DNA of 64,000 nucleotides from an uncultured Gemmatimonadota bacterium. Its GTDB lineage: Bacteria > JAAXHH01. Under the pieces are notes generated by a model. It was given only the letters and a program-made list of their open reading frames with translations, made no database searches and was not told the origin of the DNA. This document shows positions 52,939 to 53,031 of the stretch, piece after piece; positions within the stretch are counted from its first letter, which is position 1, and each line of letters begins with the position of its first letter. The DNA is taken from contig OX638340.1 of the NCBI GenBank assembly GCA_951812955.1, positions 2,144,001 to 2,208,000 on the forward strand, given 5' to 3'. The position numbers and the translations under genes are program-made.

Positions 52939-53031
52939 CTCTTAAGGCGTACGCCGGCGTTCCCCTGACCTCTTCAGCCGTACACCGGCATTTCCTCAAT
53001 CTCTTCAGCCGTATAATGGCGTTCCCGTGAT
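52939..53031. repeat. Three tandem ~31-bp units (ctcttNaggcgtaNNccggc(g/a)ttcc...); unit 3 is the last 9 codons plus stop of ribD, units 1-2 are degenerate copies in the ribD-ribE spacer
   Basis: R1 52939-52969, R2 52970-53000, R3 53001-53031. Read on the minus strand they end ...GTPAYAL, ...EMPVYG*, ...GTPLYG*. Confidence 0.65.

Follow-up and report, generated by a model that had tools for sequence, protein, structure and literature searches.

Bacterial VNTR or minisatellite loci serve MLVA typing and arise by slipped-strand mispairing. Their units of 10-100 nt lie head to tail, their sequence is specific to the locus and their copy number differs among close strains. The tandem repeats of Borgs, which are archaeal extrachromosomal elements, are perfect, A-biased and very dense; they often lie between genes but start with a first unit inside a gene end, and their genic units are divisible by 3 (PMC9879509). 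The MIRU units form one dispersed, apparently mobile family that inserts at start codons and bears a small ORF that is coupled to the following gene (PMC12548453). The TAACTGA repeats of marine Beggiatoaceae consist of a single heptamer present at 169 loci, mostly just upstream of starts, and a regulator binding site has been proposed for them (PMC4679880). Lastly, microhomology-mediated tandem duplication, by which a single-copy segment between short direct repeats duplicates and expands, is reported to be the chief way in which tandem repeats originate across the domains of life (bioRxiv 10.64898/2026.02.28.708716).

The array described here was found in a stretch of 64,000 nucleotides that was analysed as a whole (the window). 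A 31-nt unit is present in three head-to-tail copies at 52939-53031 on the minus strand, across the stop of ribD. The TRF program reported a period of 31, 3.3 copies, 72% matches and a score of 97 for positions 52931-53031, and a repeat search placed the three copies in register at spacings of 31 and 31 nt. In 100 simulated 64-kb windows, generated from a first-order Markov (dinucleotide-frequency) model, the best TRF score at a period of at least 10 was 65, and a score of 97 was reached in 0/100. The pairwise identities of the units are 22/31, 24/31 and 22/31 (71%, 77% and 71%), which is above the 60% below which the earlier note would have considered the units not significantly similar. The triplicated ribD terminus that it reported is real.

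On the coding strand, unit 1 reads ATC ACG GGA ACG CCA TTA TAC GGC TGA followed by AGAG; it comprises the final eight codons of ribD (ITGTPLYG), the TGA stop and four nucleotides of the spacer. The unit had been described as the last nine codons plus the stop; the stop and the length of 31 bp were right, but the codon count was not. The peptide readings given for the copies (GTPLYG-stop, EMPVYG-stop and GTPAYAL) were correct. Unit 3 starts with GTC and contains TACGCC, the same as the gene ends of three outgroup relatives (L001-L003). The partial unit that follows, ATCATGGGCATATCGCC, corresponds to AACATGGGCAGTCTG in the array-free relative L002. The spacer between ribD and ribE is 115 nt long in the window, and ribE has its own Shine-Dalgarno sequence, GAGGAG, at 52898-52903, eight nucleotides before its ATG. 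The start of ribE and the start of the repeat unit have TCACGGGAA in common. RibD homologues are either 364 or 382 aa long, and the true ribD start is likely the ATG at 54099, which would give the 364-aa form seen in many homologues. The Pfam identities at the three array loci are RibD, riboflavin synthase (Lum_binding), Ogt and YGGT. The features are listed in Table 1.

Table 1. Coordinates of the ribD-end array, its neighbouring genes and the arrays at other gene ends of the window
Feature	Start	End	Strand	Remarks
ribD ORF, bifunctional deaminase/reductase	53005	54153	-	Pfam RibD_C + dCMP_cyt_deam_1; stop TGA 53005-53007
Repeat unit 1	53001	53031	-	ATCACGGGAACGCCATTATACGGCTGAAGAG; inside ribD
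Repeat unit 2	52970	53000	-	ATTGAGGAAATGCCGGTGTACGGCTGAAGAG; untranslated copy; own frame ...EEMPVYG-stop; TGA kept
Repeat unit 3	52939	52969	-	GTCAGGGGAACGCCGGCGTACGCCTTAAGAG; untranslated copy, GTPAYAL; stop decayed to TTA
Partial fourth unit			-	ATCATGGGCATATCG, coding-strand reading; directly after unit 3
Partial fourth unit + distal microhomology arm	52922	52938	-	ATCATGGGCATATCGCC
Conserved 25 nt 5' of ribE	52890	52914	-	GCGCAGGATACGAGGAGTAGCATCC; identical in the window, L081, L082 and L083
ribE, riboflavin synthase	52230	52889	-	Pfam Lum_binding; starts ATGTTCACGGGAATC
ogt array, 42-nt unit x1.9	30296	30375	-	spans ogt stop TAG 30350-30352
yggT array, 17-nt unit TGACCAAGCTGCG(T/C)TAC x2.3	41461	41499	+	spans yggT stop 41478-41480; (R-S)n-R, R = CTGACC
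Probable fourth case, CCTGATCAAC x6.7	8722	8788	+	starts 11 nt past stop of PLP-dependent enzyme gene 7650-8711

The ribD neighbourhoods of seven relatives were compared with that of the window. RibD identity to the window is 97, 95, 94 and 88% in L081, L082, L083 and L084, and 86% in L001-L003. These relatives were found through RibD and xanthine-dehydrogenase homologues; an exact look-up of RibE in the assembly collection gave no record. The RibD homologues form a series of 97, 95, 94, 88 and about 86% identity, many of them lie on contigs of 3.6-3.9 Mb, and those that have names are Gemmatimonadetes MAGs. In L001 and L002, ribD ends in ...GTCACGGGCACGCCGG(G/A)GTATGC(T/C)TGA and is followed by spacers of 26 and 40 nt that hold no repeat. 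Because this gene end is present in array-free relatives, the repeat unit is native ribD coding sequence and not an inserted element. The spacer is 113 nt in L081, 181 nt in L082, 105 nt in L083 and 131 nt in L084, compared with the 115 nt of the window. Spacers are 105-181 nt in the four relatives with RibD identities of 88-97% and 26-93 nt at 86%, so that the range over the eight related genomes is 26 to 181 nt. Those of the close relatives contain a varying number of a degenerate unit, (A/G)TCACGGGAACGCCGGTGTACGGCTGAAGAG, together with chimeric units. In the alignment, the left edge (the ribD end) and the right edge (the 25 nt with GAGGAG) are conserved, and an indel-rich block lies between them. 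The ortholog comparison proposed in the earlier note thus showed that copy number and sequence of the array vary among relatives while the flanks are conserved. At 4-fold degenerate sites, the window and L081 are 95% identical in ribD and 89% identical in ribE. Since position-matched units of the same two genomes are 13-23% different, and copy number differs too, in spite of this identity, repeat turnover is indicated; the array appears to change faster than neutral point substitution alone permits.

The array is a VNTR or minisatellite for several reasons. First, it consists of head-to-tail units in the range of about 10-100 nt beyond what is expected by chance. Secondly, its copy number and length are polymorphic among close relatives. 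Third, its unit is local sequence and not a dispersed element. A pattern search found neither the unit nor its core elsewhere in the window, and among 89 fetched loci the exact 13-nt core was present only in the ribD locus of L082. The array is unlike VNTR loci in that it begins with the coding end of a housekeeping gene and that the duplicated segment includes the stop. In addition, its units are already 23-29% diverged, and the lineage to which it belongs, uncultured and Gemmatimonadota-like, is known solely through metagenome assemblies.

The same data make it highly improbable that a dispersed mobile or extragenic repeat (MIRU-, REP- or TAACTGA-like) was inserted after ribD and gave rise to the units. 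The array sits in an operon spacer, as MIRUs do (PMC12548453), and shares with them tandem units of variable number. However, the native gene end is conserved in relatives that have no array, the 13-nt core is confined, among the fetched loci, to ribD in L082, the unit is no palindrome, and the arrays at ogt, yggT, nusB and the metallophosphoesterase gene each have their own sequence. Unlike a MIRU, the ribD unit is undispersed, is derived from the end of the upstream gene and contains no conserved mini-ORF; interspersed units of the MIRU type were rejected since no single family is found at many loci and the arrays at other genes are unrelated in sequence. As in the TAACTGA repeats (PMC4679880), tandem units containing stops may extend over the stop of the gene upstream and block all three reading frames, but each locus here has its own unit of 10-42 nt in place of one heptamer. 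A pair resembling a diversity-generating retroelement, with a variable repeat at the gene 3' end and a template repeat just downstream, has a negligible likelihood. The likeness is superficial and consists of a gene 3' end repeated immediately downstream. The 31-nt units are far shorter than typical template repeats, their mismatches are not limited to adenines, and three other genes have arrays of different unit size. No reverse transcriptase domain was found within 10 kb on either side in the relatives, where the genes are rib genes, ilvE, nusB and glycosyltransferases.

With respect to its closest relatives, L081 and L082, the window is a mosaic across 49909-54153. Because RibD of the window is nearest that of L081 (96.9% vs 95.0% for L082), whereas RibBA and NusB are 100% identical to those of L082 and the GT4 gene is 96.7% identical to that of L082 vs 88.8% to that of L081, the comparison implies that a recombination breakpoint would lie in the interval from ribD to ribBA, close to the repeats.

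Arrays were also identified at the ends of other genes. The similar arrays that had been reported at ogt and yggT are real, and both span stops. The block containing these two genes was taken from five relatives, L085-L089. No extra yggT copy is present in L088 and L089, one is present in the window and L085, three degenerate copies are present in L087, and four near-perfect copies (CCAAGCTGCGCTACTGA) are present in L086. The spacer between yggT and tsaB grows accordingly in length from 12 nt in L089 and 35 nt in L088 to 56 nt in the window and L085, 89 nt in L087 and 108 nt in L086; that of L088 is a single copy and that of L089 is without the repeat. The ogt spacer varies from 25 nt (L089) up to 127 nt (L087), and the 42-nt ogt duplicate is absent from L085, which either lost it or never had it. 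The probable fourth case in the window has a unit that resembles a stop region, because the PLP-dependent enzyme gene ends in ...AACCCTGA. Further, independent examples were found in the relatives. A metallophosphoesterase gene has its final five codons and stop in five copies in L002 and in two in L001. In L083 only, the nusB stop lies within a perfect 20-nt duplication, and in L002 the stop of a glycosyltransferase (GT4) gene is spanned by a 29-nt x2.3 array. A PMSR gene and a 67-aa gene each have an array adjoining the stop. Each gene-end array has its own sequence, as compared for ogt, yggT, nusB and the metallophosphoesterase gene.

The shortest spacers of this block were those of L089 (yggT-tsaB 12 nt, ogt-CBM9 25 nt), a locus of 20978 nt whose xanthine dehydrogenase FAD subunit is 87% identical. 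No TRF array with a score of 40 or more was found in the 21 kb of L089, and this locus could act as a natural array-free comparator. The spacer between ribBA and ribH is about 17 nt in the window and L081-L083 and more than 100 nt in L084, L002 and L003. The long versions hold short tandem repeats of their own, such as a 14-nt x3.4 array at 13291-13337 of L084 (spacer region 13271-13420), and their lengthening can be read as further spacer growth by local duplication.

The mechanism by which such arrays arise is seen best at yggT. The single-copy allele of L088, gCTGACCaggctgcgttaCTGACCggg, contains two 6-nt direct repeats 17 nt apart. These CTGACC arms correspond to the Leu-Thr codons CTG ACC and to the stretch taC TGA CC, and each yggT array terminates in a partial CTGACC. 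This is the (R-S)n-R form that slipped-strand or microhomology-mediated tandem duplication leaves behind, and yggT fits the latter model exactly (bioRxiv 10.64898/2026.02.28.708716). At ribD, the array-free L002 already holds TCACGGGCA and ACATGGGCA, 32 nt apart, at the place where the 31-nt unit is bounded, and the ribE opening, ATGTTCACGGGAA, is a third copy of the motif seen as these arms. Thus, direct-repeat arms of at least 4 nt with the (R-S)n-R pattern are present at yggT, whereas the arms at ribD are imperfect (9 nt, 7/9 matching) and no microhomology flanks the nusB duplication in L083. Microhomology thus does not account for every event. The slippage origin suggested in the earlier note is supported by the copy-number variation among close relatives and by the yggT signature, and we infer slippage as the mechanism at ribD as well.

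The distribution of arrays was analyzed with a GC3-based gene map for the window and with database gene calls for L081-L089. In the window, all intragenic arrays have periods divisible by 3 (9, 12, 24, 27 and 72), except one 7-nt array in a doubtful ORF, while the periods of the stop-spanning arrays are 17, 31 and 42. For the nine lineage loci, the database calls give 25 intragenic arrays, 23 of which have a period that is a multiple of 3; the two exceptions are weak, with scores of 41-43 near the floor. This pattern is the footprint of a selection filter. When duplications were simulated uniformly on the gene map of the window, the tolerated events were 72% intergenic, 13% stop-spanning, 13% start-spanning and 2% both. 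The non-coding arrays of the lineage loci, by database calls, number 27, of which 11 span or abut stops, five span starts and 11 are otherwise intergenic. The 11/27 at stops, compared with about 15% predicted by uniform placement plus the selection filter, is an apparent excess that counts against the neutral model, in a set of loci that are orthologous and were picked for their arrays and in which promoter-bearing spacers are probably less tolerant.

A control set of 77 loci from other phyla (1291 kb) was then analyzed together with the lineage by the same crude method, a longest-ORF calling that mis-assigned the ogt array as intergenic and put some arrays in spurious ORFs. Arrays of all kinds number 68 in 317 kb of the lineage and 104 in 1291 kb of the controls, a 2.7-fold excess (0.21 vs 0.08 per kb). 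Stop arrays were found at 12 of 273 gene ends in the lineage and at 14 of 1224 in the controls (odds ratio 4.0, p = 9e-4, a value inflated by the orthology and ascertainment of the loci), but the share of all arrays that lie at stops is 18% in the lineage vs 13% in the controls. Because all arrays are in 2.7-fold excess and the stop share is similar, tandem repeats are abundant in the lineage in general, and arrays across stops are no peculiarity of it. A special affinity of arrays for stops, suggestive with curated calls, vanishes as a share under the crude method and is not claimed.

These counts bear on the possibility that the arrays report an unusual mutational regime, through either a mechanistic hot spot at gene ends or a dedicated or defective replication or repair process of the lineage that makes tandem repeats, as proposed for Borgs. 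This is unlikely. The overall excess, the stop-array counts per gene end and the close outgroup L089, which has no array in 21 kb, would favor it, and the Borg repeats likewise often start in a gene end and have genic units divisible by 3 (PMC9879509). However, the stop share is close to that of the controls, the p-value is inflated for the reasons given, and most arrays are degenerate and hence old. The arrays share with Borg repeats (PMC9879509) the first unit in a gene end, the genic periods divisible by 3, fast evolution and locus-unique sequence. They differ from those perfect, dense repeats in being degenerate, in lying on a bacterial chromosome and in having only about 2.7 times the control density, and a Borg-type repeat was rejected at unit identities of 71-77% and at 0.21 arrays per kb vs 0.08 in controls. 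It is equally doubtful that short tandem duplications occur at an unusually high rate in this clade, for example because lagging-strand maturation or repair is altered, such that operon spacers would be built largely from gene-end copies, with stop-bearing arrays perhaps retained as uncoupling spacers or as a reserve of alternative C-terminal codons.

Other repeats and repeat-like regions were observed in the window. A 24-nt x4.1 in-frame array, 98% perfect, lies at 25292-25391 near the 5' end of the metH ORF (25264-29151); the called length of MetH ranges from 1215 to 1297 aa among L085-L089, and its N-terminal region appears to be length-polymorphic. A TsaD/TsaB-like gene (41537-42376) contains in-frame 27-nt repeats with a 9-nt sub-repeat at 42296-42355, 21 nt before its stop, and the protein as called is between 250 and 279 aa long in relatives. 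Another in-frame array, 27 nt x3.1, is present at 43566-43650 in a glycosyltransferase gene (42976-44268, minus strand), and an orthologous array is present in L082, L083 and L085. A 1720-aa ORF (55281-60443, minus strand) consists largely of 72-nt (24-aa, leucine-rich-repeat-like) units and also holds a 255-nt x3.6 array, 99% identical, at 59311-60239. Because L081-L084 have Tricorn-like, DUF3187 and oxaloacetate decarboxylase genes instead at this position beside ilvE, the ORF is taken to be a strain-specific insertion or replacement. In addition, three consecutive ORFs of about 803 aa on the plus strand (15160-17571, 18175-20589 and 20699-23110) look like a tandem paralogue cluster; the region 15160-23110 has a lower G+C of 0.54-0.57, compared with about 0.62 elsewhere.

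Three functions had been suggested for the ribD array, namely stop-codon backup, attenuation and translation coupling, and none of them was borne out. Since the copies lie 31 nt apart, their frame is not that of ribD, so that none of their stops is an in-frame backup. In the window an in-frame TGA does follow two codons past the ribD stop (TGA AGA GAT TGA), but it is absent in L082, which reads GAT CAC there. As for attenuation, the RNA fold of the spacer is no better than that of shuffles (MFE z = -0.26), a scan of the ribD-ribE spacer found no terminator-like or promoter site, and no Rfam family reached the gathering threshold in the whole window (1-64000), including an FMN riboswitch that might accompany the ribD-ribE-ribBA-ribH-nusB cluster. 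A structured RNA element (riboswitch, attenuator, intrinsic terminator or REP) was rejected on these results. Translational coupling works best over short distances (PMC12548453). With the repeats, the spacer measures 105-181 nt instead of 26-40 nt, a change that is unfavorable to coupling, and ribE keeps its own GAGGAG. No conservation in L081-L084 was seen for the mini-ORFs of the array (MPVYG-stop, and one from an ATG in the partial unit). Sequence and copy number that are unconserved beside flanks with 89-95% 4-fold identity argue against a sequence-specific role.

A functional spacer, which would tune ribE by decoupling or attenuation or would catch read-through or frameshifted ribosomes with stops in several frames, is therefore quite improbable. 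The arrays are located within operons, the units hold TGA, with periods of 31, 17 and 20 nt the frame changes from one stop to the next, and in the window an in-frame TGA lies just past the ribD stop. However, copy number and sequence vary freely among near-identical strains, unit 3 has no stop, and the nearby in-frame stop is missing in L082. The fold, terminator and Rfam results were negative, periods divisible by 3 also exist (42 and 39 nt), and L001, L002 and L089 manage without any array.

For these reasons, the ribD array is regarded, with a probability of about 0.8, as a locus-specific minisatellite (VNTR) that arose by slippage and was kept since duplications that include the stop spare the protein. 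A segment from the last codons of ribD through the stop into the spacer would have been duplicated in tandem, by replication slippage or by microhomology-mediated tandem duplication, and the array would afterwards have expanded, contracted and decayed. The first copy would still terminate RibD normally, and the later copies would be untranslated filler. Because the duplicated segment carries the stop codon, such duplications would be unseen by selection on the protein; out-of-frame duplications within genes would be purged, whereas those that include the stop would be tolerated. The net outcome would be a longer ribD-ribE spacer, of 105-181 nt in place of about 26-40 nt, with ribE translation continuing from its own conserved ribosome-binding site. 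The array is probably selectively neutral, as its lack of conservation suggests, and is most likely a harmless by-product of slippage during DNA copying and no regulatory device.

The array is thus real but unremarkable, a further locus of a type already known, and its significance on its own is limited. Such arrays are a warning to annotation and assembly pipelines, in which stops may be mis-placed and copies collapsed, and in metagenomes of this uncultured lineage they are of use for telling strains apart. They provide a natural example of the growth of a bacterial intergenic spacer, in which gene ends would be copied into the spacer and then decay, as a duplication that includes the stop costs the protein nothing. 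The decayed copies may be viewed as fossils of earlier C-termini; for example, unit 3 of ribD retains the GTC...TACGCC state of the outgroups.
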